A stretch of DNA of 63,032 nt, the filler included. It is 16 parts of 16 records of this genome, joined end to end, with 100 filler letters (N's around TTAATTAATTAA, not from the genome) between each part and the next. Parts side by side here need not be neighbours in the genome. Positions count along the whole stretch, not along the records: positions 57,684 to 59,695 come from SRR9188676_2313; 15 more parts are not named here. One strand, given 5' to 3'. Shown here in pieces: positions 6,822 through 62,796 of the stretch. The position numbers and the translations under genes were made by a program. Each line of letters opens with the position of its first letter. Within the stretch, counting starts at the first letter, position 1. The notes beneath the pieces are model-generated. The model was not told the DNA's origin, ran no database searches, and worked only from the letters and a program-made list of their open reading frames with translations.

Positions 6822-6921
6822 NNNNNNNNNNNNNNNNNNNNNNNNNNNNNNNNNNNNNNNNNNNNTTAATTAATTAANNNNNNNNNNNNNNNNNNNNNNN
6901 NNNNNNNNNNNNNNNNNNNNN
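6822..6921. other. Artificial contig-joining linker (N44-TTAATTAATTAA-N44), first of 15
   Basis: Identical 100-nt spacer with stops in all six frames. It also occurs at 10983-11082, 13638-13737, 16342-16441, 18551-18650, 21955-22054, 25030-25129, 35367-35466, 39704-39803, 43347-43446, 47281-47380, 49603-49702, 55250-55349, 57584-57683 and 59696-59795. Confidence 0.98.
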
Positions 6922-20632: not shown

Positions 20633-20815
20633 TTTTCTTGAGTTGAGTGTGACTAACTTACAGCAACGATGTTTATGCTCAACTCCGTAGGGAGGGTGGG
20701 AAGAGGAAGAGATCTGAAAACAAAAGCAAAAGATTCTTGGCGTGACGCATGCACTAGCTGATGTGATTATCAGGAGAAAAAACAATTCAGGAGCAAGTAA
20801 ATCCACGGAGTCGAG

Positions 20816-21617
20816 ATGAAGGAATCGGATGTGAAATCAGCGTACTTTAAGGGTCATAAGATTGTAGAGTTGACTGGACATAAGAAGAAAGTATGTATTT
20901 GGTATCCTCTCTTCCACTTCGGCGGCTAAATTTAGACTTTAATAGGTCCATTCTGTTGCTTGGAACTGCGATGGTCGAAAACTAGCCTCCGGAAGTCTCG
21001 ACCAGACTTTGCGGATATGGAGTTTTGATTCTCCTGATCGTGTGGTATGTATCACGCCGATATGCTTCCCCACTTTTCCCCCTTGTTTGGACTCATTTCC
21101 TCTCTTTTCTAGGGCAAGGATGTTTATGAGTTGACTGGTCACACAAGTAGTGTGGATCAGGTGGTTTGGCACCCGACCCATCCTGATCTTGTTGCTACTG
21201 CTGGTACTGATAAGACTGTCAGAATTTGGGACTCAAGAGGTTCAACTCTTTTCTTCTTCTCATCCCAAAAGCAGCCAGCTGATCATCCCTTCTGGAATAG
21301 ATCGAAAGGCGGTGCAAACCGTGTCGACAACTGGAGAAAATATTAATATTGCATGGAGTCCAGATGGTTCGTGTATCGCAGTGGGAGACAAGGTTTGACT
21401 TCATCGCACCACTTCACAATGCTCAATTCTCATGTTCTTTTTTGTCCAGGAGGATGTTCTTCATCTGATTGATGCCAACACTTACAAAATCAAAAAGCGA
21501 CTTTCCTTTGAGTTTGAAGTAAATGAGATGCAGTGGGATAAGGCGGGAAAACTATTCTTTTTAACAACTGGACTGGGTACTATCGAAATTCTGAGTGTCG
21601 CACAAGATTACAAGCAG
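20816..21617 (+). CDS. THOC3: THO complex subunit 3 (TEX1), WD40 protein, 3' partial
   Basis: Five exons from ATG 20816 encode ELTGHKKK|VHSVAWNCDGRKLASGSLD, GHTSSVDQVVWHPTHPD, GENINIAWSPDG..IAVGDK|ED and EVNEMQW...FFLTTGLGTIEIL. Confidence 0.9.
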
Positions 21618-22054: not shown

Positions 22055-24522
22055 GGACGCAAATCCAGTGCCCGTTCTGTGATCTATCAACTTCTGTTGC
22101 TTCCACCATGATGAGACATCTTCATCAAACTCATACATTGAAGACTCCTATCAACCCATATGACGGAGCAGCATGCGAGACCACCTCCCCATTGGATGCA
22201 ACCTTTTCTGCTATACATCTGAAGAGACACATTTCTCGAACCCATTCATTGAAGACTTCCTACAAACCAGACCAACAAGCAGCAGCCAAGAATTTCTCCT
22301 CTCTTGAGCCCAAGCAGGTCCCCACACTATCAAACCAAGCACACATTCCCTGTCCCTACTGCGATACCCATTGCTCGAGCCGTTATAATCTCTCCACACA
22401 CATTTTACGAAAACACACCCACTCTTTTCCTCAATCCCCTTCCATTTCCTCTCCAGACTACGACGACGACAACCCCCGTCCTTCTCGTCTCCCTAGTCCT
22501 ACACAACACGAGCATATCTTCAGCCACACTCCCACTCAAGCGAACCCTCCATCTCGCCAATTTATTCCATGCCTGTATTGTTCCTGGCAGGGTTTTAACT
22601 TCAAGACCCTGCGAGCCCATTTGAACAAGCTCCATTCAACTGAAAAACTCATCGAAATTCGGCCCCCGTCAACCTCCCCTCAATGCAAAATATTATGCCC
22701 ATATTGTGACCGCAGCATTTTACCGTATAACCTTCACAGGCATATTCGGAAAAGTCATACCAGATCTGCCCCAAACCACCTCTCTCCATCCACCTCCCCA
22801 CCTTCTCTGCTCCCACACAAAATATCATGCCCTTATTGTGACCACATCAGCAGCCTGGACCACCATCTTTTCAGACACATTCGTCGAATACATGAGATAC
22901 GACTCCCAAACCCCCTCTCCCCATCCGCCTACCCACCTTTTTCTCCGCTCATCATTGAGATCGAAAGCAAGCACAACCAGAGCCTCACCAATCCAAAATC
23001 CCCTCGTGTCCCCCCAGCTCCCTCTGTTCGCCCATCAAACAAAGCATTATGCCCTTATTGTGACCTCTGCACCTACCCGAATAATCTCTTCAGACATGTT
23101 CAGAAGATACATGCCCTAACAACCCCGAACCCCAAGCCAAAAACCCCTCATGTTCCCGCTGCCCCTCGTGTTCCATACAAAACATTATGTCCCTTCTGTG
23201 ACCACATCTGCCGCTCGGAAATACTTCGCAGACATATTCAGAGAACGCATTACAGACCTGTGCGAGTACAATGCATCTTCTGCAATCATACAAACAGTCG
23301 TGTTGAACATATGTTGAAGCATATCCGGAGCCGCCATGCATTGAATTATTCGGAAAAGAAGCAACGTGCTTCAACTATCTCCCCGCCTGATATTATATAT
23401 ATTCGTAGACCACGCCGCACCCCATCATTACAGCCCAAATCCTTCTCCGATGGATCGGTCCCCAATTGCCCCATCTCTTGTCCATACTGTAAGTATCACA
23501 CAACTCGAGACGGCCAGCTACTCCTACATATTCAATCCAGGCACAACCAGGCTCGCACTATTTCTCGACAGTTGGCGACCCCTAGTGGTCCCCCGCAAGT
23601 GCAGTGTCCCTATTGCGACCTTTTCGGCGTAGAACAGCGCATTCTCAGACATATTCGAAAAACCCACACCCTCTCTGCCTCCAGTTCAATAGTAGAGCTG
23701 GTACACCGACCATGCGCTTTCTGCGACTATGGCAATTCCCAACCTGGGCATCTGATGAGGCATATACGCCTTAAGCATGCATTCACGACACCCAACATTC
23801 TACCTGGGACTACCTCATCAACACGTGCACGATCCCTCACGAAGCTCATCTATGGACAATGGCCTAAGCTGCCATCGGGGCCGATCTTCTCGTGCCCTTA
23901 TTGCAAACATCATGCTACTCAACATACGCAGCTCCGTATTCATATCCATCACCAGCACAGCCATTACTCTCCTGCACCGAAAGCGCCTCGTGATCATACT
24001 CCGTCTAAAACCCAATGCCCATATTGCCACTATATCGGCCCCCAGGATACTGTTCGAAAACACGTCAGAACAATTCACAATGTACTTCATAGTCAGCGAC
24101 CAGAAATCCAATGTCCATATTGTGCATTTGTCACATATTACTCTTACCTGTTGAAGCATCATGTGCGTCAAAGACATGCCAACATATCATCTTATATATG
24201 TCCCGTGTGTAATGTCAACCTTCGCACAAAAACCCGTTATAGCCTGCACATGAGATACATTCACCCTGATCTCTCGAAAAATGCACCATACCGACGTTCA
24301 TTGGAGCCTCATGGTTTCCATGATGATGATGATTCACTTGTAGATATGGATTTGGACCCTGACCTTGCTGATAGCGATACAGATTCATATTTTATGTCCC
24401 AAGAGCACAAATCCGCATCCTCATCTAAGCATGACGGTTCCAACGGATTCTGTTATAGCCATATGGATGCCACTCAGTTTTTGTGGGGTACATATTTTAG
24501 GTTCCCTTCCACTCCACAGTAG
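22055..24522 (+). CDS. Multi-C2H2 zinc-finger protein (15 intact fingers plus 1 degenerate), 5' partial, no visible intron
   Basis: Open from the contig start to TAG. Repeated C-x2-C-x11/12-H-x4-H units (mostly CPYC) with Pro/Ser-rich linkers and an acidic tail. Confidence 0.9.
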
Positions 24523-25129
24523 TAACCCATGCTAAACAAGCGGGTATGATATAATAAATAAATCGAACTATTCTCAACTCTTTCAGTCTATCATAGAGTC
24601 TGACACTACCACCGCATCATCATACGTCCATCCGAGGACCTTTTGACAACGGTTCAGATCGAAAACGACTTTCTTTTCCATAGAGTGGGGCCTAGTTATT
24701 GGTTGAGTCAAAAACACTCAAAAAATTTGCTTGGGGAATGATTGAATGATTGCCAAAAAAAAATCTAGAAAATTTCGAGATTTCCAGGGTGGTCCCTCAA
24801 GCTTCCACTAGCCAATCTTTCCCTTTACAACACTACAACTTACTGAGTGTGATTTACTCCATCAACAGAATTTGAAGATCAACAACTCAACAGTCATAAA
24901 ATTTGCCAATAGGAACACCAGGAACTCCTCACCGGGCGACTGTATCAGCTCACACTGGGCTGCTATCTCCTTCCTCGCGCATTGTCGCGCATAGAGTGGA
25001 GTTCGGGCTTTTTTGATTGATGTGACCTANNNNNNNNNNNNNNNNNNNNNNNNNNNNNNNNNNNNNNNNNNNNTTAATTAATTAANNNNNNNNNNNNNNN
25101 NNNNNNNNNNNNNNNNNNNNNNNNNNNNN

Positions 25130-28100
25130 CTCTTTGACCCTATCGCTGCCATCGGTGTCGGTAGAATTATAGGGTGTCAGGGCGAGAGCTACGCGGATAT
25201 CTTCTGTGGTAGTGGTAGTGGGGTAGGCTGAGAATTTCGCAGAGTCCGCACTTGCATAGAGGGAGAGCCCCAGAGAGACAGAGGTACTGGCCTTGCTGCT
25301 TTTGCCGTTATTTTCTTGCGTGTAGGATACCATGATCAGCGTGAAATCGACATCGCATTGTTGTGGTGGGGTCGCGCTAACTTGGCGATTTGCGGTCCCA
25401 AAGCCAAAGTCTAGACTCTCGGCGGACAGAGTCGCTCCATAGAGGCCATGGGACTGCACAGTAAGGGTAGTATCATTCTGGTACGAGGGGAGAGAATACT
25501 TGACTTTTCCAAGGAGCAAAGCAGACATACTGGACTTCATCACGAGCTTGGAGATGGTCTCAGAGCCATCTGTATCCGCATTCGGCTGCAATGTGAAGTT
25601 CAGTGCAGAAATGGTATCTTCGGTAGCTTCGACATTTTCTACATCTTGGAAGAAGCAGCCGTCGCTTTGGGCATTCAGAGCTACAGTGAGCGTGGTATTG
25701 TCACTGAGTGTCCAGTCGAGGCCATTGGCCTCCATGGAGAGCAGTGAGAGAGTGAGCACAAAGTCCACATCGCACTGGCCCATAGGGGTGCCTGACCCCA
25801 GAGAGGTGCGCATCTTGGACGTAAATCCCGTGCCAGATGCGAGAAGCGTAAAGATGCTCTCAGTCGGATCCGTAGTAGAGTTGTTATTAGTATTATCAGT
25901 ACCAGAAGAACCGCTTCCGGAGCCTGTGCCTGTGTCAGTACCATCATCATCATTATCATTGCTATCAGTAGTGTTGGTGGTAGTGGCACTTGTGTCGATA
26001 ATGCCAATAAATGCATAGGATGTTTCCCACACAGACGTAGGCGACACACTAACCAGTCCATCAGAGGGCTGGATCACAATTTGCCGAAGTGTATCAGAGC
26101 TATCAGAGTCTGTGGCAGCTAAGGGGGTGAACACAAAGGCAAAACTGAGATCCTCGGTGCATGTGGTTTGCGCAACCGTGATCAGGACAGGTTCATCACA
26201 TGCACCCTGCACCCCCACACCAACAGACTGTGATGTGCTGTACATGGCGTCCAGGCCGTTGAATTCTACAGAAATCGACCACACCGACAGAGTAAAGTCC
26301 ACATCGCAGTTGAAATTCGGCGACACAGAGAAGCTAGAAATGGAGCTTGATGCTGTGAATCCCGTGCCTACCGCACTGAGAGTGTAGATTTGAGAGAGTA
26401 GTGTGGACCGAGTGAATGATATCGATGACATGCGGATCTGACCAGAACCATAGAACCCGTTGATGCCACTTCTTATCACAAGCTTTTGCGTTTGCTGAGA
26501 AAGATCTGTGTCCGAAAAGAAGGTGCCCATAAGCGGGGTAATCAGCAACCTGACACGGATATCCTCTGTGGTGTTGTAGAATGGGTACACTTCGATTTCG
26601 GGGGCGTCGGCACAGGCACTGAGTGACACACCAACGGTCTGGCTGGTTGAGTATGCAGAGGAGTTCCCGTTTGCCTCCATGCCAATGACAAATGTGGTGA
26701 GCGTGAAGTCTTTATCGCATTGATGTGCTGCAGAGATGGACACTCCCTGGATTCTCGCATACGACGCAAAGCCAGTGCCCGGCGTGGCAGAGGTATTGAA
26801 CGCAGTGGTGAGGGCAAAAGCGGGTTCTGACAGGTACAGTTCCACGAGACGGTCGGAGCTATCAGTATCTTCATTCACCATGGGGGTAATGACCAAGAAC
26901 ACTTGGATATCCTCTGTCACTGCTGTGGAGTTTGCTGCGTCTAAATCAGGGCTATCACAGCGCGCAGTGAGGGAGATACCCAGGCTAGAGGAGGCTGCGA
27001 TGCTGTTTTTGCCATTCTGTTCTGTGGAGATCAAGTTCAGCGTGAGTGTGAAGTCAACATCGCACTGCACGGCGGGCGTGACGCTGGCACCAGGCACGCG
27101 CCGCGTTGGCGTGAAGCCGCTTTCGGCCACAGTGACTGTGTACACTCCTACTTGCGATAGAGAAACCGTCGAGACAATGCCCGAGAAGCTGAGGTATCCT
27201 GCTGCGCTGGCACACACCACAGAGAGCTTGCCCAGAATCTCTGAAAAGTCCGTATCAAGGCCAAGTGCAGGTGTGAATCTCATGGACACTTCACGGTCCT
27301 CGACTACACTTGTGGAAATTGCAGCGTTCTGGAACACGGGAGAGTCTGATTTTGCAGCGAGTAAGATGCCGTACTGCACCGGATCACTAGCACGCTGGTC
27401 CTTGCCGTTGGCCTCTGTGCTGATGGTGCGCAGGTTCATCGTGAAGTCCAGGTCACATTGCACAGCAGGAGACAGCATGAGGGTGGTGATGCCCACCCCC
27501 CAGGAGAAGCCCGAGCCCCACGCTGTAACAGTGTAAAACGGTGCCACAGTCGAGTCAAACGTGTAGAGCAGGTGCATGAAAGTCACGCGCGGCATCACAT
27601 CACCATACGCATGCAAATCCTGGAATGATAGCTTGGTGCATTGCTCAGAGCGGTCCGTATCCGCGAGCAAACTTGGAGTCATATACAGCGATATTTTCAC
27701 ATCCTCCAGAGTACTCGAGGAGCTTGCGGCAATCAGCTTCGGGACATCACCCTGCGCACTGAGGTACATGCGGATAGAGACAGAGGTGCTGCTGCTAGTG
27801 TGCCGTCCATTCAGCTCGGAGGCGACAACTTTCGCATGCCAAGTGAAGTCCAAGTCGCATTGCACAGCAGGCGAAATGCTGAGATTCGAGAGTAGCGCAC
27901 TAGGCGTGAAGCCAGAGGAGGTGCCCAACGCGCTAAGGGTGTACTTTGTGCCACTATACGATGAAACAGTGAACCTGGGCGCAGAAAAAGTCACGGCTCC
28001 TAACTCAGACAGCAAATATACTTGCAGCTTATACACCGAGTCTGAGGCGTCCGTGTCCACCCCCGCCCTGGGGGTAATGCGGTACGCTGTGGCAGTGTCC

Positions 28101-31100
28101 TCCCCTGTCTTGGCAGATGCTAGGCTCTGGAGAGAAGGCTGGTCCGAGATGGCACAGAGCGTGACTTGGTAGGACACAGTAGAGGATAATGCCGTTTTCC
28201 GGCCATTCGTTTCCATGGACCTCATGCGCACGGTGAGTTCAAAGTCAAAATCGCACTGCACGGGTGCAGAGAGAGAGTGGCTTGCGATGACCTTGCTGGA
28301 GGCAAAGCCCGTGCCAGCGAGGGTCAGAGTGTACCAGCGTGTCGCAATCGCAGACGTCGAGTACGCGATCGACGCGAAGCTGAGATAGTCAATTAAAGTC
28401 CCGTTAGTATCGCTTGAGTAGATCAAGGCCCGGAGCCGGTCTGAACCATCCGTATCTACCCCGAAAGTGGGTGACAGGAAGATGGATACTCGGCGGTCTT
28501 CAGTGGCAGAGAATATAGTCGTAGTAGCAGTACTAGTAGTAGGAGTGATAATTCTAGCAGCATCAGACACGGCATGCAGAATAACCCCGATCCAGGAAGT
28601 GGTGCTCGGGAATACATCTCGGTTGTTGTACTCCACAGCGAACGCGCGCGTGGTGATGGTGAAGTCGTTATCGCACTGCACCACGGCGCTCACGCTCAGG
28701 CTGCCCAGCTTCTTCCCCGAGGAAAACCCGATGGGAAGGGCGGTGGCAGTGTAGACCGTCGCGGCCTTCACTTGGTAAGACAACTCGCTGGAGAATGCCA
28801 TGGAGAATGTCATGAAGGGGAAGTTGTCGATGAGTCCCCGGACCATAAACCGATTCAGCCGCTCAGAGATATCAGTATCGTATCCAAAGGCCGGGGTAAT
28901 ATGTAAAGAAAATGAGGAATCCTCAGAACTAGCAGTGGAGAATACTGCGGATATCTTGGGCAAATCTGCATCTGCCTGGACCACGAATGCCACAGAAGAG
29001 CTAGAGCCCACAACAGGGTCCCTGCGGTTCTCATCAATGGCAACTAGGGCGACACTCAGTGTGAAGTCCAGATCACACTGTGTCACAGGCGATGCACTCA
29101 CGGCGCGAATTCTGGTTTTCAGCCCAAATCCTGTGCCGTGACAGGTCACGGTGTACATCAGATTCTGCTTCACGAAGCTCAGGCCTGGGAAGTAGTTGGT
29201 GTTGATGCTCAGGCTGAAGTCCCTGGATTGGCTGGAGACCAAAATCCGGCGAATCAGCTCAGATCCATCTGTATCGTGCATATAGAAGGGCGTGGCTGTG
29301 AGGCTGACACTCATATCTTCGGTGCTGAAAGTGGCGAGAGTAGCCAGCACTGAGACATCAGCCACTGCGGATACTGCAACTGCCAATGGCTCAACAGCCG
29401 ATGCTCTTGCATCTTTACCGTTCTCCTCTACAGACAGGATTCGCATACTTAGCGAGAAATCTGTATCGCACTGCGTCACGGGGCTCCAGCTGAAGGATGG
29501 CACAATTTCACCCGAGGCAAAGCCGCTCCCGGTGATCGAAACCGTGTACACTGCGCCGTCATTCTGCGATGTGGTAGACCTCAGAGCTGAGAAAAACATT
29601 CCCGAGAGAAGCTGCGGGTATGCACTAGCAAAGGACAGCTTGCGCAGCGCATCAGAAGCATCGGTATCGTCCAACAACAGGGGGGTAATCGACACGGTGA
29701 TTTTGCGATCCTCGAGCGCAGAGGTTGTAGAGTAGTACGAGTAGGGGATATCAGCACATGCAGGGATGAGCACGGCAACAGACACAGAGCTGGAGGCGCG
29801 CTCGGCTTTCCCATTCACCTCCTGCGTGATCACGCGTGTGAGTAGTGAAAAGTCGATATCGCATTGCAGGGCAGGCGTGAGGCATAGCCCTTGCATAGGC
29901 GTGTGGGATGCAAACCCGCTGCCGGATGAAGAGCATGTGTAGGATGTATTCGACGCACTTCCGAGCATCGTGATGGGCCGATAGACCACATAGGGGATAA
30001 TGGGCTGAGTGCTATCGGAGAATGACACCTTAGTAATCCGCTCAGAGACATCTGTATCGTACCCAAAGGCAAGCACCACACTCATGGACACTGAAATGTC
30101 CTCTGTGGTTAGAAATACTGCCGGTGCCACGTGAGGCTCATCAATCAGTGCTGAAATGGCTACCCCCAGGGACAGCGAAGTAGATTTGCGCGTGTCTTTC
30201 ATGTTTTCTTCGACTGTGATCACCCGTGATGAGAGCGTGAAATCCACATCGCAGTTTGCCATGGGGCTCATGCTCAAATCCTGGATCAGAATGTCGGACG
30301 CGAACCCAGAGCCGAGAGAAGTGATGGTGAAAAGATTGGAGCCATGTCCCGGGTAGGACTCGAGATGAGTAAACGAAAGCGCCGCAGCAATGGCGCCATT
30401 ACTCGCAATATACATGATTTTGCGCAGTCGGTCTGAGGCGTCCGTGTCGAGCCCAAACTTCGGTGTGTGGTACAGTTTTGCAGAGAAGTCCTCTGTGGTA
30501 GCCAGAGTGACTAGCTTCTGCGCAAAGAACGGTGTATCCGAGCACGCAGAGAGAGGCACAGCCATGGAGAGGGTGGTGCTTTCTTCGACATCGCGGTTAT
30601 TCCGCTCGGAGACGAAGATGGAAGCCGTCAGCACAAAGTCAATGTCGCACTGGTTCGACGCACTCACAAAGAAGTTGGATAGCCGCGCACTGGGTGAGAA
30701 CCCCGTGGTGGTTGAGGACATGGTGTACAAGGTGCCTGATTTCCCCGTCTCGGTGCTGACGGAGTAGTGCAATGCAGAAATGGACCGGACGGAGATTTTG
30801 AAGAGCTGCTCGGAGAGATCCGAGTCTGGGCTTCGAAAGGGCGTGACAAAGAAGGGTACGATAGTGTCCTCGGATGCAGAGGTCATGGAGTCCATCTGCA
30901 AGAATGCTGCATCGGATACACTCGAAATCATCACTGCGATGGATAGGGTTGTGCTTGACCGAATGGACTTGTTGTTTTCCTCGACGACAAACAAGGACAA
31001 TGTGAGCGAAAAGTCCACATCGCACTGCCAGGACGCGCTAGTGCTGAAGTAGGGCACCAGTTCTGAGGACGCGAAGCCTGTGCCTTGCGCTGTGAGCGTG

Positions 31101-34100
31101 AAGAACGAGCCTTGAACCGTGCTGCTGCACTCAGAGAGCGAAGTGAACCGAATGTGCGAAATCACGGGCGAGAAGAGGCTCACTTTGCGCAGCGGATCGG
31201 ACAGATCAGTGTCCAGTCCAAACGCGGGAGTCATGCGTAGCACTACTCGAATATCCTCGGAAGTATTCGACGACGACATGGCACTAATATCTGGCATATC
31301 GGCACTGGATATGATCTGAATGCCCAAGGATTGCGACGTGCTGGAGATCTGGTCATGTGAATTGCCTTCCACGCTGAACACATTCGCCGATAAAGTGAAG
31401 TCCACATCACACTGGAAGGCAGCACTCATGCTGAAGGAGGAAACTTTTGCCCGCCAAGAAAAGCCAGTCCCAGGCATGGTAACAGTATAGGCAGAACCAA
31501 GTAATAAAGACACTGAGGAGGAGGGCACATGAGAAATCACATTCCCAAGCATCACGTGTGTGAGGCGCAGCTTCAAAAGCGCATCCGAAAGATCCGTGTC
31601 CGCCCCCGATAACGGCGTGATATCCAATCGGAACTGAATGTCCTCTGTGCTGAGTGTGGAGGAGAGAGCTTGGATCGAGGGCTCGTCGGCTCGCGCATGG
31701 ACATTGAATGCAATGCTAGTTGTGGCACTGAATGCCTTGTTGACATTGTTGCGCTCAAAGTACAGGCCCTGGAACGTGAAGGTGAAGTCCACATCGCACT
31801 GCACCGCAGGGCTGATGTAGAAGTTTTGCTGCCCGACAAAGGGCGCAAAGCCACTCCCAAACACTGTCAATGTGTACCGTGGGCTTGTAAGCTTGGAGAT
31901 GGACAGTGAGGGTGCAGAAAATGTCACCTTGTTGGAGATATCGCGCACAGAAATGGACGGTGACCGCTCGGAAAGATCGGTGTCCACGAGGAGCGTTGGA
32001 GTCCACACTAAGGAGATTTTGCTATCTTCTGTGGCCGCGGTTAACGCAGGGACCAAAAACACACTCGGGTCGCAAACTGCAGTGATTTTCACCCCTGCAG
32101 TGTGCGAAGGCGACTTGAAATCATCCTTGCCATTGGCCTCGACGCTGATGAATGTCGCAGTGAATGTGTAGTCCACATCGCACTGCACCGCAGAGCTCAC
32201 ACTCACTGCTGATATGAGTTTTCCAGAGGTAAATCCTGTCTGGACGGGTCCTGTGATGGTGTAGAAATCAGAATCGAGCGCGAGAGTTGCACTGACAAAG
32301 CTGAACGTTCTCTTGTTGATGTTGGATGTCTGAAAGAGCACTTTGATGATCTGGTCAGAATTGTCCGTGTCTGTGGTTTGGAAGGGAGTTAGCTTGATAC
32401 TGTGAATGATATCCTCAGTGGTCGAGTACGAGTTTGTGATCGAAATGAATGGCTTGTCAGTCACGGCTTGGATGGAGAATCCCACAGTAATTCCACTCGA
32501 ATGCATATCGAGCCCGTTGGCTTCCACAGAGGAAAAGAAAATGGACAGGGTGAAGTCGAGGTCACATTGCACGAGCGGACTCACAGACAGAGAGGCGAAG
32601 AGAGCAGAATTCGCAAAGCCAGTGCCATGAGAAGTGACAGTGAACACACCAGACGCAACCGAGCTAGCCAGACCAGAATTCGAAGGGACGTGGAAGCTCA
32701 AGGATGTGATGTGAGAGTGCCGGGTAAACATAGTCCGCAGGTCCTCAGAACGATCTGAGTCGATAGTGTGGGGAGTTACCATTAGGGGCGCAAAAAGATC
32801 CTCCGTGGAACTGGTGCTCGAGATGGACGTGATGACTGGGAAGTCGGCATACGCCTGCCAGACAATGCCGATGGACAGAGAGGTAGAGATGGTCTTTGCA
32901 CGCCCGTTTTCCTCAGCGCCTGTGAGCTGCACACTGAGCGAGAAGTCCACGTCACACTGTGCAGAATGTGACACGCTTAGCGCGAGAATCTGCGAGGATG
33001 CGAAACCCGTGCCCAGCGCCGTGAGCGTCATGAGCGAGGAAGCAATGGAGGACGATGTTAGCGGGATCGCAGCAAAGGTCACGAGCATGGGTGTGGTTGT
33101 GGTCACGAGTTTGCGCAGTCTGTCAGAGGCATCTGTGTCGATGCCAAAGACCGGTGTCGCGCGAATTTGGAATTTCATGTCCTCTGTGGCCGTCGAAAAG
33201 GTGAGCTGAATCGACGGCTCCTCTCCCACAGCCGAGATGAGGATCTTGACGGTTGCGGAGGTGCTGATCTCAGGATCGCGCGTGTTCTCCTCGACACTGA
33301 CAGAGTACACTTTCAAGCTGAAGTCCAGGTCGCACTGCACACTGGGTGTGATGCTGAGCAGCTTAATGCGGGCATTGGTGCCGAATCCCGTGCCTCGCGC
33401 AGACAGGGTGTAGATAGTAGTCGCAATGCTGGAGGTGGAGTACGTCAGCGGCTTGAACGTCGAGAACTCTGGCACATTGATGACTGCGATACTGCGCAGC
33501 CACTCTGAGCGGTCTGTGTCCGCCCCGCGCGTAGGGGTGATTAATAACATGGCTTGGAAGTCCTCTGTGGTGCTAGTGGTGGCAAAGCAGCGTACAGTGG
33601 GTGTCTGTGCCACGCCCGTGATCATGACGGGTACTTTGGTGGCTGTGGCGCTTCGGGCGTCCTTGCCGTTCTGCTCGGAGCCGAAGAGTCGCATGGTGAG
33701 TGTGAAGTCGACATCGCACTGCGGCCACGGGGACACAGAGAAATCCTTGAGTCTCGCCAAGGGCTGGAAGCCAGTGCCACCCGCAGTGATGGTGAATGTG
33801 GTGCTCACACGGAGCACAGAGGACCCAATGGTGGAAAAGGTAACGGAGGTTATTACTTTAGACACCATAGATAAGATACCGAATCGCTCGCTCTGGTCCG
33901 TATCGACAGATCCAGGAGTTAGCAGCAGTAGGGTTTTTCTGGATTCGGTGGTCAGCGTGACAGGGAAGCCAATACTAGGGGTGTCCATGGCCGTCGTGAC
34001 CTGAATGGCTATGCTTTTTGTGGTGCTCACTGAGGATGATGAGTATTGATTGTTCTCGCCGGATATGCACTTGATGCTGAATGTGAAGTCCAAGTCACAC

Positions 34101-35139
34101 TGCGCGACCGGACTCAAACTGAAAGTGGAAAATTTGGCAGCAGTTGCGAAGCCAGTGCCGCTGGCTATGAGCGTGAAGGTAGTCGAGGCAGCTGCAGATG
34201 CCATGGCAGAAATGGACGGGAAGCGCACCCCCTGGGGGATGTTCGTCAGCACGGCTTTGACAAGAACCTCAGACCCATCCGTGTCCAGGCTATCGGTGCG
34301 AGTCGGGGTGGCTGTGAGCATCACTTTCACATCCTCTGTGACCACAGTGCTGGTGCCTGTGGCAAGCGTGGGCTGGCTCGAGAGTCCAATCACAGCAATA
34401 CGCATTGTGGTAGAGCCCGATGCTTCATTCCCATTATTCTGCTCCACAGAGTACAGAGTTGCTGTGAGGGTCATGTCCACATCGCAATTCACTGCAGGCG
34501 ACAGTGAAAAGGAAGTGAATTTCCTCAAGGGGGTGAACCCTGTGGACGATGCTGAGGTCACGGTGAATAGTGACGCTGTCTGCGCATAGGTGCCCCCAGA
34601 GTTGAACATGAAAGTCACACGGGAAAGTACCCCTCCAGCAGGGGTATCGTGGACTTTCAGCTTGTGCAGAAATTCTGAAGAGTCTGTGTCTGTGAGGGCG
34701 GGAGTTGCAATGATGGCTATTTTCATGTTTTCGGTGGTGGTCATGACGCTTGTAGAGAGAGTAGGGCTATCAGTGACTGATGTGAGGGATACCCCGAGGC
34801 TCTGTGTGGTGGACGCAGACTGATCGGACTTGAGAATCACGAAGCTGAGTGTAAAGTCCACATCGCAGTTCACAGTTGCAGAAACGCTAAGTCCAGAAGT
34901 GAGCAGCTTGTGGGTGAATCCCGATCCCGTGTGGGTTAGGGTGTAGAGGGTGGCGGCTAGCGTGGACACTGTGCTCGAGAGCGCTGAGAATGACACGTGT
35001 GAAGACGGCAGCTGCTTTGCAACAAGCTTGTGCAGCGTTTCGGAGGTGTCGGTTTGTGCCAGTGCCGGTGTGAGCCGAAGCGATACGCGGTGATCCTCGG
35101 ATGTGCTGGTTGGTGAGATCACGGACAGCTGGGGGGACT
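25130..35139 (-). CDS. Giant Ser/Thr-rich repeat protein with at least 25 tandem ~128-aa Ig/cadherin-like repeats; one >10-kb exon, partial at both ends
   Basis: Uninterrupted ORF with 25 copies of (Q/N)CDxD(F/Y/M) about 385 nt apart. Unit consensus AxxDxP...TED...TP...DTDxSE...YTxTxxGTGF...SPxxQCDxDFT...ExN. A pyrimidine tract and CAG acceptor at 35140-35142 mark the exon start. Confidence 0.9.
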
Positions 35140-36061
35140 CTGTGAATAGAAAAGAGGGGGGGAAGATGAAGGCAATTAGAATAGCAGAAGAAGTAGAAGA
35201 ATGGGATAGATTCGGAGAGATAGAACAAGATGAGAGAGGTAGCGAAAAAAAGAAAGAAATAGGGGGGGAGTTGTGAATCACGAACGCGAAGTAGAATAGC
35301 CGGAAAGAGTCACATCATCATCATCATTTATTTATATCCACAACTAACGAAAGTACGCGTGGATAANNNNNNNNNNNNNNNNNNNNNNNNNNNNNNNNNN
35401 NNNNNNNNNNTTAATTAATTAANNNNNNNNNNNNNNNNNNNNNNNNNNNNNNNNNNNNNNNNNNNNTCGAATTTTTCAGAGTCAAAATAAATCACGATAA
35501 AATAACTGACGTCCTTCGGATAGTCCTCGGTGCCGCGACCTTGGGCTCTCCTCGGAAACCTGACACTCATTTTAAAGTACGAAAGCTAGTACAGGAACAC
35601 AGGGTGTCAATCGAAAGATAAGGTCGTTGCTTTTTTTATATCCAACTTTAGCCCTATCATCCTCTCAAGAGAAACATTCGAGATTTAATATCGCTTTCCT
35701 CTGTCTACACTACACCCCTCAAGAGAAACACCTCATTTCGAATATCTAGGACCCGACCTGACTCGAGGGTGCCCAAGAACCTGCAGTCTCACTTTCATCG
35801 TATTTCAACGTTCGCTAAAAGCAGGTTAGGGACGCGACGGTTAAACCCAGTTTCACCCTTTTAGCGAAAGGAGGATTACGTGAGGGTCGGTTTGATTTAC
35901 GGTATGAATGGGTCAAACCGACCTTAATCGATATTCTCATTAGGCTGAAAGGGGTGTGAGCGGTTAGGAAATCACAGGCTCTCTCAGAGCTCGGCGGGGA
36001 GCTCATCTGCGTCCGATAGCCAGCTGTGATGGGTGGAAGCAGAGGTAGGAAGAAAGCTTAC

Positions 36062-55417: not shown

Positions 55418-57202
55418 CTGAGTGGTGGCTCGCTGTGACGCATGACTTCTGCCGTGCTGTGCGCAACAAGGAGCTGGACAAGGTTGTGGACAGCCTGCGG
55501 CGTGCGGCGTCGCGCGTGGAGGAGTCCGAGCGGGCGCTGAAGCGGGGCAAGGGCCGAGGCTGGTGGACCGAGGGCGCGGGCCGCTCCAAGTGGATCGAGC
55601 ACACCGACCCTGCCCGCCTCGCCCGCAAGGTTGCACTCGTCGCGCCCACGGACCTCACCGTCACGCTCATCGCCGTGTCCACGCTCACGCTCATCGCCCG
55701 CTACGCCAAGGACCTGGCCAAGTCCGCACACGCCTCCCATGCAGCAGCTTCACACACACATGCACACCCGCATCGCGCATCCATCTCCGGCACTACATCC
55801 ACATCCACATCCACATCCACAGTGTCTGGGACATCTGTGGGGACGCGCGGCAGCGTGAGCAGTGGTGTGCCCGCCGCGTTGCCTGTTGCCCCGGTGCTAG
55901 CTAACTCGTCCTCTGCCCCGCCCTCCGTCGCGCCCATCCCACACACCATCGCACGCTCATCAATCACTGCCTCTTCCATCCTTCCTCAGTACGTCTCATG
56001 CCCCCCCTTACCCCCCTTACCCCTCTTCCTCTCCCCTCAGCCCAGCCCCCCCACCAGGACCTACAGGCTCCCATGCATGCTCTGAAAATTTTGTCGTTTT
56101 GCGTGTCCCCTGTCGCTGTTGTATGTTTTGCGATAGAAAACTCACTGGAATGTATTCTGTGTGTGCAGGCATGGGGGTGACCAGACGAATCTCGAGGGCA
56201 TCTGCGCGGTGCTGGCGACGCTTGAGGAGTGGCGTGAGGAGCTGTGGCACACGTGGCTGAGGCACTGCGCCCGTGCCGCCGCGCTCGCCGACGCCGCCAA
56301 GTCAGCCGCCACGCCCTGCGCCTCGCCAACGTCATGCCCGGCCGCCGCCGCCACTCCTACTGCGCCCGCGACAGCAGCAAGCACAGGCTCGTCGCGCCCG
56401 CCGTCGCGCACGTCCCCGCTTGCACAGTCCCCTGACCTCCGCAAGCTGCCGCGCACGGACTCAAGCTCATCCTTGTCAGCTCAGACAACCCCTCCGAACG
56501 GATTCGAAAACGGATTCCTTCATAAAACAGGTGCGGGGATAGGGGCAGGTGCAGAAGCCGACGACATGCCGGGGCTTAGCAATGCAATGGACACCGTGGC
56601 TGGCCAGAAAATACCCCGGATATTATGTGACACATTCACACCTGGCCAGCCGTCGCGGCATGGCACAGCCACAGCCACAGGGTATGGGTCAGGACCGGGG
56701 GCGACAGTTCCGGACCTCAAGGACCTGGGTCTAGAGCAGCATGAACTGCTAGAGCTCGCCAGCGCATCATCCGGGGGCATAGTGGGCACGCATCTTGGGT
56801 GGGTCGGGTCGCACCCCACGTGGGACATCCCGGGGGGTGCCGAGCTGCTGCAGACGTTCTTCGAGGCGTGTCGCCGCGGTCCCGCCGTGCTGCACATCCC
56901 CACAGTGTACCGCGCACTCAAGGCAGACCTCAAGCGCTTCAGGCTGTGGAACACCCACCTGCCCTGGGAGCGCGACTGGGACAAAGACGCTCGCGACAGG
57001 GCGCGTGATGACAGGAGGGGGGGTAAGAATGGCGTCAAGCTTGCCCCGCTGGACGGGGAGGGCGATGGCACAGGCGCTACCCAGGCTGCCGGTCCGAAAT
57101 CTGACCTGCCAAAACTAGGCGCTTGCTATGATGTGACATCCGACGTGTACTATGCCCCGAACGATCTCATTCGGTCGTTCTGCATGCTGCCCTGCGAGCA
57201 GA
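55418..57202 (+). CDS. Hypothetical protein, two long GC-rich exons, partial
   Basis: AG/GT-bounded exons 55418-55988 and 56169-57202 join in frame; helical blocks separated by S/T/A/P-rich linkers; family not recognised. Confidence 0.65.
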
Positions 57203-57229
57203 GTGCGTCACCACACTGCATCTCCACAC

Positions 57230-57310
57230 TACCCTCAATCACTACACTGCTCTCTATCACTACCCTCAATCACCACACTCCCATCAATCATCACACTACC
57301 CTCAATCTCC
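57230..57310. repeat. Degenerate intronic CACTACCCTCAATCA-like tandem repeat
   Basis: Several imperfect copies directly after the donor at 57203. Confidence 0.6.
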
Positions 57311-57683
57311 CCACTGCCCGAAATATCTCTGCCATTCTCAACACCCCCTCTTCTATCCTCATTAATTCTGTATCCACCCTTGTTTTTCTCTGTGGTTGAT
57401 CTGTGTCAGCCCCACTGCTCTAAATATCCTCGCTAGTCTCAACACCCTCTCTTCTTTGCCATTTCACGATTCACTCTGGTTTTTCATCTTCATTCATTCT
57501 GTATCCACGCTTTTCCCCCGCCTTTTGTCCATTAACGAAAAGCCATAGGGGATGTCGCCAGCTTTTTTAGTTGCCTCCCCCAANNNNNNNNNNNNNNNNN
57601 NNNNNNNNNNNNNNNNNNNNNNNNNNNTTAATTAATTAANNNNNNNNNNNNNNNNNNNNNNNNNNNNNNNNNNNNNNNNNNNN

Positions 57684-59695
57684 GTTGGAGAGAGTCACAG
57701 TGTAGACATCACCACCATAAATACGGTTGACGCCAGAGAGGTCGATAGCCTGGATGGTGTACGAGGCCATGTTGCCAGCAATGAGGTTGGTGGGTCGCAC
57801 CACGGTGGTCAAGGTGGTGTCAGTCTGACCGAGCAGCTTGAGGCTGAAGGTATCGGTGGACTGAGCAGACAAGCTGTTAGAGCTCTCCGTGGAGTTGAGC
57901 TTGGCAACGAGAGTGTACAGCTGTTCGACGTCGTGGCGGATCTGGATACCAGTGCTGATATCGCTGGAGTTGAAGCGCCATTGGTCAAGAGCGATCTTGT
58001 TACCGACGTTGAACACAGCGGCAGTGGGGACGTTGGACAAGAACAGAGTCAGGTACTCGGAACCATCAGTATCAGTGAGGGCAAGAGAAGTGGTGGTCAA
58101 AGTGGTGTAGGCACGGGCAGAGCCAGTGATGAGAGCAGGGTAGTCCAGGGTAGGAGCATCGGGAGAGGCATCGATCTGCATGGCAATAGTGTTCTGCGAG
58201 GAGGCGGTAGAGCCCAAGTTCGTTTCCAGGGCAGTGATCTGGGCAGTGAAAGTGAAGTCAGTGTCGCAGTTCACAGGCGGCTGGAAGGTGATACTGTTCC
58301 TCACGTCAGTGACGAACACATTGGTGGTGGTGCGGTTCAGGTAGTAGTCCGTGGTGGCAGTCAACGTGTTGGTCTTGACCAGAGTGACATCCGAAGAGGT
58401 CAAAGTGGCGGTGGCAGGCACGCTCAACAACATCAAGCGAAGCTGCTCAGAGGCATCAGTATCGACGAGCATGGGAGTGACATGGAAAGTGGCAGCGATA
58501 TCTTCGGTGCTGCTGCCAGAGCGGACAACAGAGGAAGGAGTATCGGCAATGGCCTGGACAACGACACGAGTGCTTCGAGTGGTGGACACAACAGGCACAT
58601 CTTCACCAGAGAGCTCCACAGAGCGAACAGTGGAGGTCAGCACAAAGTCAACATCACAGTTGAAGGCAGGCAAGATGGCGAAAGTAGTGAACACGGCGTC
58701 CGGAGTGAAGCCCTGAGCGGTAGAGGAGGTGACGGTGTACAGAGTACCAACGCGAGCAGAAGCGGTGCTGGTCATACCCAAGAAGGAAGATCCCGTAGGC
58801 ACGTTGCGGACAACAAGAGTACGCAAAGCCTCGGAGAGATCCGTGTCGGCATTGTAGCGAGGAGTCACGCTCATGTACACGGCAGTATCCTCAGAGGTGG
58901 TAGCGGTGGTGCGGACAGCGTACGTGGGCTGGTCGGTGTCCGCACGCAGGGTGATGCTAGCGGAGCGAGAGGTGCTGCTGATGGTGTCCAGGTTGTTGCG
59001 TTCCACAGAGATGATGGTGAACGACATGGTGAAGTCCACATCGCATTGAGTGGTTGGGAGCACAGAGAACTGGGTGATGACGCTGGCGGAGGCGAAGCCG
59101 CTGGTGGCGGAAGAGGTCAGAGTGAACACGCCCAACACATTGTCGAAGGCCTGAGTGGTGGCAGTAGAAGTGCTGGAGAAGGTCACAGGCAGAGGCACGT
59201 TCGTGATAGTCAAGGCACGCAGAGTCTCAGACAAGTCAGAGTCAGTGGTGGCGAAGGAAGGAGTCACAAACAGGCGCACGCTGATGTCCTCAGTGACAGC
59301 CAGGGTGGTGCGGACAGAGAGGAGAGGAGCGTCGGCACGGGCAGTGATCGACACACCAGTGGTCTGAGAGGTGCTGACAGCAAAGTCGCCGCGGTTGGCT
59401 TCGATGCTCTTGAGCACGAAGGACACGGTGAAGTCCACATCGCAGTTGATAGAGGGCAGCACAGACATGGCAATAGCGGTGTCGCGGGCAAAGGCCTGAA
59501 CGGCAGCGGAGGTCAGAGTGAAGCGAGTGCCAGAGAGCGCGGAAGTGGTCAAGGAAAGACCAGACCAGGTCACACCAGTGGGAGTGAAGGCACGCACAGA
59601 GCGCAGGCGCTCAGAGTTATCGGTATCGATGGCAACAGCGGGAGTCACGGGCACGGCAACCTTGAGGTCTTCGGTGGTCAGAGTGGCCACGGTGC
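57684..59695 (-). CDS. Second giant-repeat protein fragment: four CDxDF repeats, one divergent repeat, then the start of a filamin-like Ig domain
   Basis: The whole contig is one ORF with the same TED/DTDxSE/CDxDF unit as 25130-35139, ending LIAGNMASYTIQAIDLSGVNRIYGGDVYTVTLS (filamin-repeat pattern). Confidence 0.88.
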
Positions 59696-59795
59696 NNNNN
59701 NNNNNNNNNNNNNNNNNNNNNNNNNNNNNNNNNNNNNNNTTAATTAATTAANNNNNNNNNNNNNNNNNNNNNNNNNNNNNNNNNNNNNNNNNNNN

Positions 59796-59819
59796 GAGAG
59801 AGAGAGAGAGAGAGAGAGA
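59796..59819. repeat. (GA)n microsatellite at contig start
   Basis: Visible dinucleotide run. Confidence 0.9.
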
Positions 59820-60066
59820 AATTATACGAGGAGAAAGAATAAAGTGATCATTTCAAGGATAATGAAAAAGCAAGTTTTTTGGAGAAAAAAAAATGGGCTT
59901 AGATGTAGGATGAGTATATGGCAATGCGGACAGTAGTGATTCTGAATCATGGTCCGTGAGAGAAAAAGTTGTGCTGATTCCAAATCTTATCACAGCACCA
60001 AATTAACAGAGAAATATGAAAGTAGAAAAAAAGGAAAGAGGATAGAGATGGTCTTTTAGAACTTAC

Positions 60067-60989: not shown

Positions 60990-62796
60990 ATGACAGAAGA
61001 GAAGCCTGTTCTTGATAAATCCTTGTTTGATTCGACGAAACGAGTCGTTTGCCTTCGTGTATCTATCCCTAAGATTGGGGTTCTAATCAAAAAGATCCAA
61101 AAGTTGGCATATATCTCACACAATTTCTCATTGGATCTGCTAATCGCCGGATTTTCTTCAGACATCTGCTTCATCATCCTCGAGTCAAGAATGTGCAGCT
61201 TGATACAGAGAATCCTGATGCGTCATATAAGTTTTTACTGCTTTCGGACAAGATTACTGATCTTGGTATTCTAACGATTGTAAATCATCTACAAAGTGGT
61301 TCTCATTTCCTCTTTTAATAGAATTGACTGAATTACCGGCCGAATTACGACCAGCTGTAACTGAAGCTGAAGCGGTCCCTGAGTTTTATGCTGTGAAAAT
61401 GACATATAATGACTACGGTGCAGGTGTCGCTGTCACAATTTCCCATTTTTCGATCTTTTGCTGATCAAACCTTCTGATTTTAGACGAAGTTCTGAGAAAG
61501 ATCCTTCCTGAAGATGTCGAAATCCCCTCAGCATTCGAAACTATTGGCCATATTGCGCATTTGAATCTGCGCGACAACCATGAGAAATATAAGCCGATCA
61601 TCGCCCAAGTCTTGCTCGATGTATGTCCTCTCCAGGAAACAAAAACCAGGAAAACTTTATTGTCTTACGATGTGTTTGATTTTAGAAAAATCCTTCCTTG
61701 AGAACAATCGTGAATAAGGTGGCCACCATCTCAAATCAATTCCGTGTTTTCCCAATGGAAATTTTGGCGGGAGATGAGTCACTTCATACCGAAGTGGTGA
61801 GTTTTTCGCTTTTTTCTCTCTTTTCTATCTAGAAATCCCTCCTTTTTCCAGCCTCGTCGTTCAAATGAAGGTGCCTTTTAAGCATATCACATCGCTCATG
61901 TCACGTCATAATTGACCATCACAGAAACAATCAGGCTGCCGCTTCGAGCTGGACTATGGCGAAGTATACTGGAACTCTCGCCTGGAGCACGAACATCTTC
62001 GATTAGTGGGACTCTTCAAGCCTGGTGAAGTTATTTGTATGTCTTTTCCTTTTTGTTTCTATATATGTCAGCGAGAAATATCTCAGCAGATGGAGGGATA
62101 CGGACACTCACTCGGATGCTCTCCTGGACTCCTCACAACAATCTCGCCCATCCTAACATGTGTGTGAATTGTAATAAAATCTCTCTGATTTTCGTTGAGT
62201 ATCAGTGTCCGGGTCTCAGCTTTGAAACCTCAACGCCAAAAATTTCATGCTTTCTGATTGCTACGAGGAGAACATACATTTTTTTTCCTTCTCGGTGGAC
62301 AAATTGAAAAAATTGAACCCAGTCGATTTCCCCCCAAGAGATCCACTACGAATTAGAGATCGGCGATTCGCGTGGAATTCATCATTTCAATGTTCGCGGC
62401 GAGAAATCCGAGAATTTTTTTTTCAAAACCAGTTTTCCTGTCTGATTGATGTTTATGAGAGTCAAACTGCAGGCAATCGCGATGACACTTTGGAATCTTC
62501 TCACTAAACCTGGTTCATATCTAACACATGCTTTCCAAGCCAATTTACAAGGACGAGTGACATTTCTTTCATGGGTCAAGAAAAGCCCTGATTTTTCCTT
62601 TCTTTTCTCTGCTTTCATTTCTATTCCTACGTGATCCAACTTCTCTACGTCCCGTGTAACACACCATTCAGGCGATATGATGTGTGGAGTCGGGCCGTTT
62701 GCAATGCCAGCTGGCAAGAAAAAGTGCAATGTATATGCCAATGATCTGAACCCGTGTTGCTTCAAGTATATCCAACGCAATATTAAGCTCAATCAG
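60990..62796 (+). CDS. TRM5: tRNA (guanine37-N1)-methyltransferase, 3' partial
   Basis: [16 protein letters not shown]...[17 protein letters not shown]...[11 protein letters not shown]...[11 protein letters not shown]...[14 protein letters not shown]...VYANDLNP. Confidence 0.95.

Follow-up and report, generated by a model that had tools for sequence, protein, structure and literature searches.

In RTX adhesins, Ca2+ bound in the linkers is reported to stiffen the stalk (PMC7493085). GEX2 of plants and FUS1 of Chlamydomonas are described as gamete-adhesion membrane proteins with extracellular arrays of filamin-like immunoglobulin (Ig) domains. In this work, we examine a fragment of a giant repeat protein, hereafter P0001, in which these two kinds of building block seem to meet. 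It is encoded on an unplaced contig (SRR9188676_2313) that occupies positions 57684-59695 of the window, by which we mean the whole stretch of DNA that was analysed (63,032 bases). We consider it likely that this contig encodes the last part of a row of Ig-like units, repeated in tandem in a giant surface protein of a eukaryote, followed by the probable start of a filamin-type domain. The parts are of known kinds, namely an adhesin-type Ig unit and a filamin repeat, and it is their combination in giant eukaryotic proteins that is apparently undescribed. In the literature searched, we found no published name or description of the eukaryotic unit or of the unit-filamin combination, and no occurrence of the motif strings DTDGSE, TDTDGSE, DxDGSE and QCDVDF; as a sign of novelty, this is thin evidence.

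The unit array and its bacterial relatives

The contig is 2012 bp long, with a GC content of 57.1%. The minus strand reads through the whole contig, 670 codons without a stop, and the single open reading frame (ORF), truncated by both contig edges, gives the 669 amino acids (aa) of P0001 (57685-59693, minus strand). The original prediction had described four CDxDF units, a shorter Cys-free unit and then AGNMASYTIQAIDLSGVNRIYGGDVYTV, and had taken the piece for the end of a giant repeat array. All these elements are indeed present in P0001, which runs from four units of about 130 aa with the CDxDF motif to one shorter unit without Cys and then to 41 residues that include AGNMASYTIQAIDLSGVNRIYGGDVYTV, and the piece is the end of such an array. 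The motif C[DN]xD[FYM] is found four times, at aa 84, 217, 346 and 476 (spacings of 133, 129 and 130), and [DS]xDxS[EDQ] five times, at aa 23, 151, 283, 411 and 541; the four cysteines of P0001 all lie within the CDxDF motifs.

The units were scored with a eukaryote-unit profile built solely from the 23 complete units of another contig of the window (25130-35137). All of them are on the minus strand. Unit 1 (aa 1-126, 59316-59693), a Cys-bearing Ig-like unit of the eukaryote type with DTDNSE at aa 23 and CDVDF at aa 84, reaches 101.2 bits; unit 2 (aa 127-258, 58920-59315; DSDLSE at aa 151, CDVDF at aa 217) reaches 104.9 bits, and unit 3 (aa 259-386, 58536-58919; DTDLSE at aa 283, CDVDF at aa 346) reaches 103.8 bits. 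Unit 4 (aa 387-516, 58146-58535; DTDASE at aa 411, CDTDF at aa 476) is of an intermediate type, with 63.9 bits for the eukaryote-unit profile and 53.0 bits for a bacterial-unit profile described below, so that it retains its Cys and yet is the most bacterial-like of units 1-4. As the profile comes from an independent contig, the 64-105 bits of units 1-4 (E 3.5e-21 to 7e-34) put the repeat far beyond chance. The terminal unit 5 (aa 517 to about 628, 57810-58145) is Cys-free, about 110 aa long and of the bacterial type, with TDTDGSE and a conserved Trp. If a eukaryote-type unit is defined by a length of about 125-135 aa, a match to the 23-unit profile and the motifs DxDxSE and [C/S/T]DxDF, units 1-4 belong to the type and unit 5, at 7.6 bits, falls outside it.

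The column that holds the Cys is occupied by it in 23/23 units of 25130-35137, in four of the five units of P0001 and in 13 of the 31 units of a eukaryotic relative, P0019, where the remainder have Ser or Thr; among bacterial units, Cys is found in 0/30 and the residue is often Ser. Since this column varies between Cys, Ser and Thr, we regard the Cys as a lineage preference at a site that tolerates Ser and Thr, and not as a disulphide partner. The acidic positions of DxDxSE, [C/S/T]DxDF and DxP are invariant or near-invariant across units.

A HMMER scan of 1.84 billion representatives retrieved 624 proteins at E<=1e-3. Among the longer proteins, a transcript-derived protein of Rhodelphis marinus matches best (E 3e-154, 33% identity) and shares the QCDVDF and DTDxSE pattern; the next best are giant bacterial proteins (E 1e-95 and weaker) in which Pfam recognizes Cadherin_4, Big_9 and Cadherin_5, some of them also having RTX repeats. 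At least two CDxDF motifs occur in 12 of 165 other retrieved proteins. The bacterial unit is about 110 aa long, with the consensus ...EDTAIALNISAALADTDGSETLSVTISGVPAGATLSAG...GTWTLT...SGDFTLTVTA..., and it tiles whole proteins: in the bacterial protein P0004, 24 copies span residues 148-2774. A bacterial-unit profile made of 92 units from 11 bacterial proteins (a twelfth yielded none) matches all five units of P0001, at E 4e-9 to 6.5e-17; the Pfam models Cadherin_4, Big_9 and Cadherin_5 themselves have no match on the fragment. In the ESM Atlas, unit 3 lies closest to clusters of hypothetical proteins from bacteria (score 0.95), and Big_9, Cadherin_4 or Cadherin_5 is present in a minority of these clusters. 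Searches of genome contigs with unit 5 plus the tail, and of metagenome contigs with P0001 or with a five-unit alignment, returned no relative; for the protein P0008, such a search recovered nothing beyond the Elioraea locus of P0008 itself (L001) and, weakly, a locus of Frigidibacter (L002). On the strength of these sequence matches, the units are homologous to the units of about 110 aa of giant bacterial adhesins, the eukaryotic version being about 20 aa longer and usually having Cys where bacteria often have Ser.

Among the relatives scanned, every protein with the Cys-bearing type has a eukaryotic set of domains. P0074 (2120 aa) combines the units with EGF_CA, a hydrophobic segment and a protein kinase, and P0041 combines them with EGF. 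The Rhodelphis protein P0015 (2487 aa) has an EGF array, three units and a single hydrophobic segment, and P0054 (4959 aa) has units, 23 filamin-type repeats and a TRP-like multi-pass region. A common unit type is thus joined to very different C-terminal halves in P0054, P0074 and P0015. Hydrophobic segments lie near the C-terminus in P0020, P0054, P0074 and P0015, and in the full-length relatives the unit array is N-terminal and is followed by EGF and/or filamin-type Ig arrays.

The fold was approached with AlphaFold2. A single-unit model from 29 paralogous rows had a predicted local distance difference test score (pLDDT) of 50.9 and was not used. A model of units 4 and 5 with the tail, computed from 43 rows that included 18 two-unit windows from the Elioraea locus, reached a pLDDT of 82.6 and a predicted TM-score (pTM) of 0.70, with both units predicted as all-beta sandwiches. 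Block means of pLDDT over the two units are mostly 77-96, the lowest being 66; unit 4 is modelled as a nine-strand beta-sandwich (mostly 77-93, lowest 66), and unit 5 has block means of 77-96. With this model, Foldseek found matches to tandem Ig, FN3, cadherin and bacterial-adhesin structures, with TM-scores that stayed low (<=0.38), and VIA-align, run on 48,161 chains, listed numerous Ig-like sandwiches with Z of 8-11, including YcnI (Z 11.1), cohesins (9-10), pilins, macroglobulin domains and cadherins (about 8). The VIA-align match of highest identity is 9cse_A (Z 9.7, root-mean-square deviation 3.0, 113 aligned residues, 20% identity), which is shown in its published report to be the Ig-like split domain of the Aeromonas hydrophila RTX adhesin (PMC12077191). 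At the level of the predicted model, the Ig-like beta-sandwich fold class is clear, but the matches single out none of the solved families.

The terminal unit and the tail that follows it

Unit 5 (DYPAL...TDTDGSEYLTLFLSNVP...W...STESSN) lacks Cys and is about 20 aa shorter than the others. It scores 44.9 bits with the bacterial-unit profile against 7.6 bits with the eukaryote-unit profile, which bears out the earlier observation that the terminal unit is the closest to the bacterial pattern. Its alignment to the bacterial profile contains one gap of one residue and spans TDTDGSE and the Trp, and BLASTP of unit 5 against the units of the bacterial protein P0007 gives E 1e-7. Judged by sequence, unit 5 is related to the other units and is bacterial-like; asked, as had been proposed, whether it is related to them at all, the comparison returns homology to the other units with a different, bacterial-like type.

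Across 102 eukaryotic units compared, unit 5 leans the most towards the bacterial side (eukaryote-minus-bacterial score of -36 bits). It is followed by the last units of P0020 (-29), P0074 (-8) and P0054 (+7), which are short and Cys-free, and then by unit 4 (+11). The last units of these three relatives cluster near the base of the eukaryotic units. Seven arrays have a visible end, and five of them finish without Cys (P0001, P0020, P0054, P0074 and P0015), the Cys being kept in P0019 and P0041.

These features have to be weighed against an explanation that we take seriously, although we put it somewhat below an even chance: unit 5 may have started as a normal unit of the eukaryote type and decayed at the edge of the array, where it would have lost the insert and the Cys, and its bacterial resemblance may come from convergence or long-branch effects. 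No branch of the tree is longer than that of unit 5 (1.42; the median is 0.53), and many internal units of relatives have Ser or Thr in place of Cys (18/31 in P0019, for example). Edge decay fits less well with a nearly gap-free match to the bacterial profile that includes TDTDGSE and Trp, with the short, Cys-free last units of P0020, P0074 and P0054, which are likewise bacterial-leaning or weakly eukaryote-leaning and sit near the base of the eukaryotic units, or with a Cys-free end in most of the arrays whose end can be seen.

The trees leave both placements standing. In a quick 132-unit tree, unit 5 fell inside the bacterial units, with a support of 95 in the Shimodaira-Hasegawa-like approximate likelihood ratio test (SH-aLRT). 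When the search was constrained to keep the eukaryotic units in one group, the resulting tree was better than this quick free tree by 80 log-likelihood units, so the free search had been poor and we draw nothing from where it placed unit 5. Keeping all eukaryotic units together was not rejected by the approximately unbiased test (p-AU 0.917). With a subset of 50 units, all trees were accepted: the free tree at a log-likelihood of -11877.0, unit 5 with eukaryotes at -11898.5 (p-AU 0.227), and unit 5 with bacteria at -11897.2 (p-AU 0.275). The original prediction that the terminal unit may preserve the ancestral module is therefore not borne out by the repeat-unit trees, which do not distinguish these placements. 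A bacterial-like unit at the end of the array nevertheless provides a way to test the origin of the array, by transfer and expansion or by decay at the edge.

After unit 5 comes a Thr-rich linker (aa 629 to about 638) and then what are putatively the first strands of a filamin-type Ig domain, cut by the end of the contig (57687-57809, minus strand). AGNMASYTIQAIDLSGVNRIYGGDVYTV lies at aa 639-666, that is, at window positions 57696-57779 on the minus strand. When the last 55 aa were searched against the PDB with phmmer, 8/8 matches were to the Dictyostelium gelation factor (best E 1.1e-5), and the 27 residues MASYTIQAIDLSGVNRIYGGDVYTVTL align without a gap to the xxFTIxAxDxxGVxRxxGGDxFxV strand region of several repeats of its rod. 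Two control windows of 55 aa adjoining the tail gave 0 matches and 1 unrelated match (E 1.5). The tail does not look like another unit, as the two unit profiles give it 1.5 and -0.8 bits. A filamin profile of our own, made of 49 repeats from P0019, P0020 and P0054, scores the 45-aa tail at 4.8 bits over profile positions 6-34, in the expected register (vAGeeveFtvslrDsyGN in the profile, IAGNMASYTIQAIDLSGV in the tail). Of the top ESM Atlas clusters listed for aa 622-669, those that carry a family name are Filamin clusters (PF00630), with scores of 0.84 and 0.76, which we take as a lead only. Among the 165 proteins, the best match of the tail is P0054 3828-3872; this is the start of a filamin-type repeat (3829-3921), just before the Pfam Ig_GEX2_N match at 3841-3914.

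The relatives supply the rest of the context. Pfam Filamin is found downstream of the unit array in 3/3 relatives longer than 4900 aa, namely P0054 (E 2.3e-44), P0020 (residues 2151-2950, E 2.2e-36) and P0019 (residues 5751-6750, E 5.8e-24), and an iterative search counts 23, 11 and 14 filamin-type repeats in P0054, P0020 and P0019, respectively. In P0020, the first filamin repeat comes directly after the EGF repeats that trail the last unit. The family of chimeric giant proteins that had been surmised from the DNA alone is thus found among these relatives. As for the tail of P0001 itself, the direct evidence for its filamin identity, drawn from sequence comparison, is weak but specific, and the context in the relatives is the strongest support; taken together, they make it quite probable that the last 41 residues are filamin.

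Several results pull in the opposite direction, for the tail and in part for the whole fragment. Pfam and NCBIfam scans of P0001, of the tail and of the 3336-aa product of 25130-35137 gave nothing significant, only noise. Pfam Filamin (PF00630) has no match with P0001, its last 161 aa or its last 55 aa, even at E<=10. The E-value of 1.1e-5 stems from three homologous repeats within one chain and is effectively one observation; single-repeat chains of the gelation factor reach E of about 1 only, and in a PDB search with the whole 669 aa the gelation factor is absent from the 12 matches, all of them insignificant. The 4.8 bits of our own filamin profile are equalled by 87 of 2000 shuffles, by 8 of 116 other windows of P0001 and by 28 of 659 windows of 25130-35137. 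In the AlphaFold2 model, the tail has a pLDDT of 47-63 and no strands. In the relatives, EGF or other domains stand between the array and the filamin repeats, unlike in P0001, and filamin is found in 0/8 of the shorter or truncated eukaryote-type relatives scanned. A PDB search with the unit profile gave insignificant matches only.

The silence of PF00630 has to be read with the length of the fragment in mind. The gathering score of this model is 26.9 bits and only about 41 of its 93 positions can lie on the contig; with about one third of the domain present, the threshold is out of reach for such a fragment. Formally, a missing filamin-profile match is the outcome that the original prediction had set against itself, but the contig holds only this small part of the domain. 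Of the proposal that the tail is filamin, the match to the gelation factor stands, while PF00630 remains silent and our own profile gives 4.8 bits.

The alternative is that the last 41 residues are a linker plus another beta-rich domain (another Ig-like or adhesin domain, for instance), with a coincidental resemblance to the filamin motif. It would account for the Pfam result, for the low score of our profile (empirical p of about 0.04), for an ESM Atlas score of 0.84 that is below the trust level of the tool itself, and for the absence of any match at E<=10 when aa 625-669 were searched against 5.8 billion proteins. We consider it unlikely, since the PDB search of the tail gives filamin-rod chains only and in the correct strand register, which the control windows do not, since the best match among the relatives is the start of a filamin-type repeat, since giant relatives carry filamin arrays downstream of their unit arrays, and since the tail matches neither unit profile.

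The related 10-kb piece, the host and the surrounding contigs

The other piece of this family in the window, on the minus strand at 25130-35137, is a 3336-aa exon with 25 CDxDF motifs and the 23 complete units used in the profile, and it is a probable paralogue. P0001 had been described as more Thr-rich than this piece, with a stronger bias towards codons ending in C or T, and both differences are found: Thr makes up 18.1% of P0001 and 12.3% of 25130-35137, and C/T-ending codons amount to 78.2% in P0001 against 57.4-61.6% in 27/27 windows of equal length from 25130-35137. In the same comparison, A-ending codons are at 1.9% versus 14.7%, and the effective number of codons (Nc) is 38.0 versus 48.5-54.7. 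Composition and codon bias therefore set P0001 apart, as expected for the paralogue that the original prediction had suggested. The kinase exons of the window (19053-20836) have 3.5-9.5% of A-ending codons and a GC content at third codon positions (GC3) of 62-81%, so that the codon bias of P0001 lies at the extreme of the range of this assembly and not outside it. The P0001 paralogue is probably the more highly expressed.

It could be argued that the two pieces are parts of one gene, with the larger piece upstream, P0001 as the end of the array and an assembly gap in between. The order would be compatible, the large piece being cut at its 3' end inside a unit and P0001 beginning at a unit boundary and holding the array end, and a six-frame scan of the window with three home-made profiles turned up neither another fragment of the family nor any filamin fragment. 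This is nonetheless quite improbable. The differences in codon usage and amino-acid composition are abrupt, with no drift along the 10-kb piece towards its 3' end, which makes a separate paralogue more likely, and between the two pieces the units share only 25-43% identity and form no pairs in the tree. We hold it highly probable that the gene of P0001 is separate from 25130-35137.

That the contig could be a contaminant from another organism, bacterial or eukaryotic, is very improbable: although it is an unplaced contig of about 2 kb and 57% GC among contigs of 40-47% GC, and the codon bias of P0001 is extreme, the Cys-bearing units occur, among the relatives scanned, in proteins with eukaryotic sets of domains only, a second contig of the window has the same unit type in its 10-kb exon, upstream of which the in-frame sequence does not look coding, and the kinase exons approach the same bias.

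The 10-kb piece has particularities of its own. The in-frame stretch upstream of the repeat exon (35138-35314, minus strand) is non-coding-like and pyrimidine-rich (…FFFSLPLSSCSISPNLSHSS…); an intron probably precedes the exon, whose start would be near 35137, and the N-terminus of that gene would be elsewhere. At 25649-26182 (minus strand), one unit has an insert of about 45 aa of low complexity, rich in Thr, Asn, Asp, Gly and Ser (…TTNTTDSNDNDDDGTDTGTGSGSGSSGTDNTNNNSTTD…), and it is the sole such unit among 29.

The window is made of 16 contigs of 2.0-10.2 kb each, joined by identical artificial spacers of 100 nt. Each spacer consists of 44 N, TTAATTAATTAA and 44 N, at all joints; those at 57584-57683 and 59696-59795 flank the contig of P0001, and others are found at 6822-6921 and 25030-25129, for example. 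Because these spacers join contigs that are not physically linked, gene order and neighbourhood across the joints carry no information. The other contigs hold eukaryotic genes split into separate ORFs, including Bax-inhibitor, F-box and tetraspanin fragments, and an intron-split TRM5/TYW2 gene at 61465-62167. A protein kinase domain at 19053-20836 (minus strand) is distributed over three ORFs that cover Pfam positions 1-42, 49-133 and 164-239, which indicates introns, and genes broken in this way identify the assembly as that of a eukaryote with introns.

On the contig of P0001, the plus strand has an antisense frame of 703 aa (57636-59747), which we rejected as a gene: it is open only because the sense frame lacks TTA, CTA and TCA, whose complements are stop codons. 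The contig at 55350-57583 has a GC content of 60.5%, compared with 40-47% in most of the others, and contains a 420-aa ORF (56137-57396, plus strand) without a Pfam family, among several overlapping open frames, as expected at such a GC content. An uninterrupted frame of 821 aa (22057-24519, plus strand) carries many zinc fingers of the C2H2/Di19 type (CPYCD…HIRxxH repeats; zf-Di19 E 1.1e-27). At the very edge of the contig that follows P0001 in the window (59796-59830), there is a (GA)n/(CT)n microsatellite, which suggests that the assembly breaks at simple repeats. It also breaks inside giant repeat genes.

Proposed architecture and comparison with known systems

We propose that the tandem Ig-like beta-sandwich "extender" units would form a rod, and that this array would close with the shorter, Cys-free unit of the bacterial type. 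Some 10 Thr-rich linker residues further on, a filamin-type Ig repeat would most likely open with its first strands, and it is there that the contig breaks. By analogy with the full-length relatives, the complete protein would carry a long filamin/GEX2-type Ig array and a membrane anchor after the unit array. Since the array is N-terminal and the hydrophobic segments are C-terminal in these relatives, the rod should project from the cell surface, with the unit array acting as an outward stalk. We give even chances to the idea, taken from RTX adhesins, that the acidic motifs (DxDxSE, [C/S/T]DxDF and DxP) bind Ca2+ at the junctions between units and stiffen the stalk. The bacterial relatives and the filamin-like ectodomains of the GEX2/FUS1 type suggest a role in adhesion or surface recognition.

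If this architecture is correct, a type of stalk domain known from bacterial adhesins would also build the outer part of giant eukaryotic surface proteins, where it would be joined to filamin/GEX2-type Ig arrays that eukaryotes use elsewhere for cell-cell adhesion. A more speculative scenario, which we regard as rather doubtful, concerns its origin. A bacterial extender module could have entered an early protist lineage, its present relatives being those of Rhodelphis and of a small number of eukaryote-type proteins. There it would have gained the insert and the Cys, multiplied to up to 32 units and been linked with EGF repeats, with membrane or signalling domains and with Ig arrays of the filamin/GEX2 type. 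The outcome would be an undescribed class of giant surface receptors, in which most arrays would still keep the founder copy as their short, bacterial-like last unit on the side of the membrane. Each array would then record its own origin through its founder unit. On the practical side, no Pfam or NCBIfam model detects the eukaryotic unit, so that such genes are currently annotated as nothing, and a profile of the unit would improve the annotation of protist genomes.

Cadherin and protocadherin ectodomains are likewise tandem beta-sandwiches with acidic motifs at their junctions, and the matches of Foldseek and VIA-align include Cadherin-23 and protocadherin-15. They differ in that the TM-score does not exceed 0.38, that the Z of about 8 is tied with many unrelated Ig-like folds, and that the motifs are not the same; Pfam cadherin-family models have no match in P0001, and the resemblance is one of fold only.

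The RTX adhesins (AhLap of A. hydrophila, PDB 9CSE; region II of Marinomonas MpIBP), together with the unnamed bacterial DTDGSE unit of about 110 aa, are much closer, as P0001 shows direct sequence homology to the bacterial units. Pfam covers the DTDGSE unit partially, as Cadherin_4, Big_9 or Cadherin_5. The likeness extends to tandem arrays of tens of copies, a predicted beta-sandwich and acidic motifs near the unit boundaries. Unlike the RTX adhesins, P0001 belongs to a eukaryotic host, its units are about 20 aa longer and have a Cys before DxDF, and the arrays of its relatives are fused to EGF, filamin-type Ig, hydrophobic segments, a kinase or a TRP-like region. HemolysinCabind was matched neither by the fragment nor by the 3336-aa piece nor by those eukaryote-type relatives that were scanned, and we see no RTX nonapeptides and no type 1 secretion signal, the gene ends lying off the contig. 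The protein works like an extender array, but it is not an RTX adhesin.

With Filamin/ABP280 (PF00630), as represented by the gelation factor ABP-120 (PDB 1wlh, 1qfh and 1ksr), the first strands align ungapped and in register. Unlike in the gelation factor, only about 41 of the 93 domain positions are on the contig, with no match at the level of Pfam, the setting would be extracellular, and no actin-binding domain is seen.

Finally, we know of no bacterial-type unit array in GEX2 or FUS1. It is nevertheless with these proteins that the filamin-bearing relatives of P0001 have their counterpart: P0054, P0020 and P0019 match both Ig_GEX2_N (PF23616) and Filamin, and P0054 and P0020 have hydrophobic segments of a membrane-like kind.

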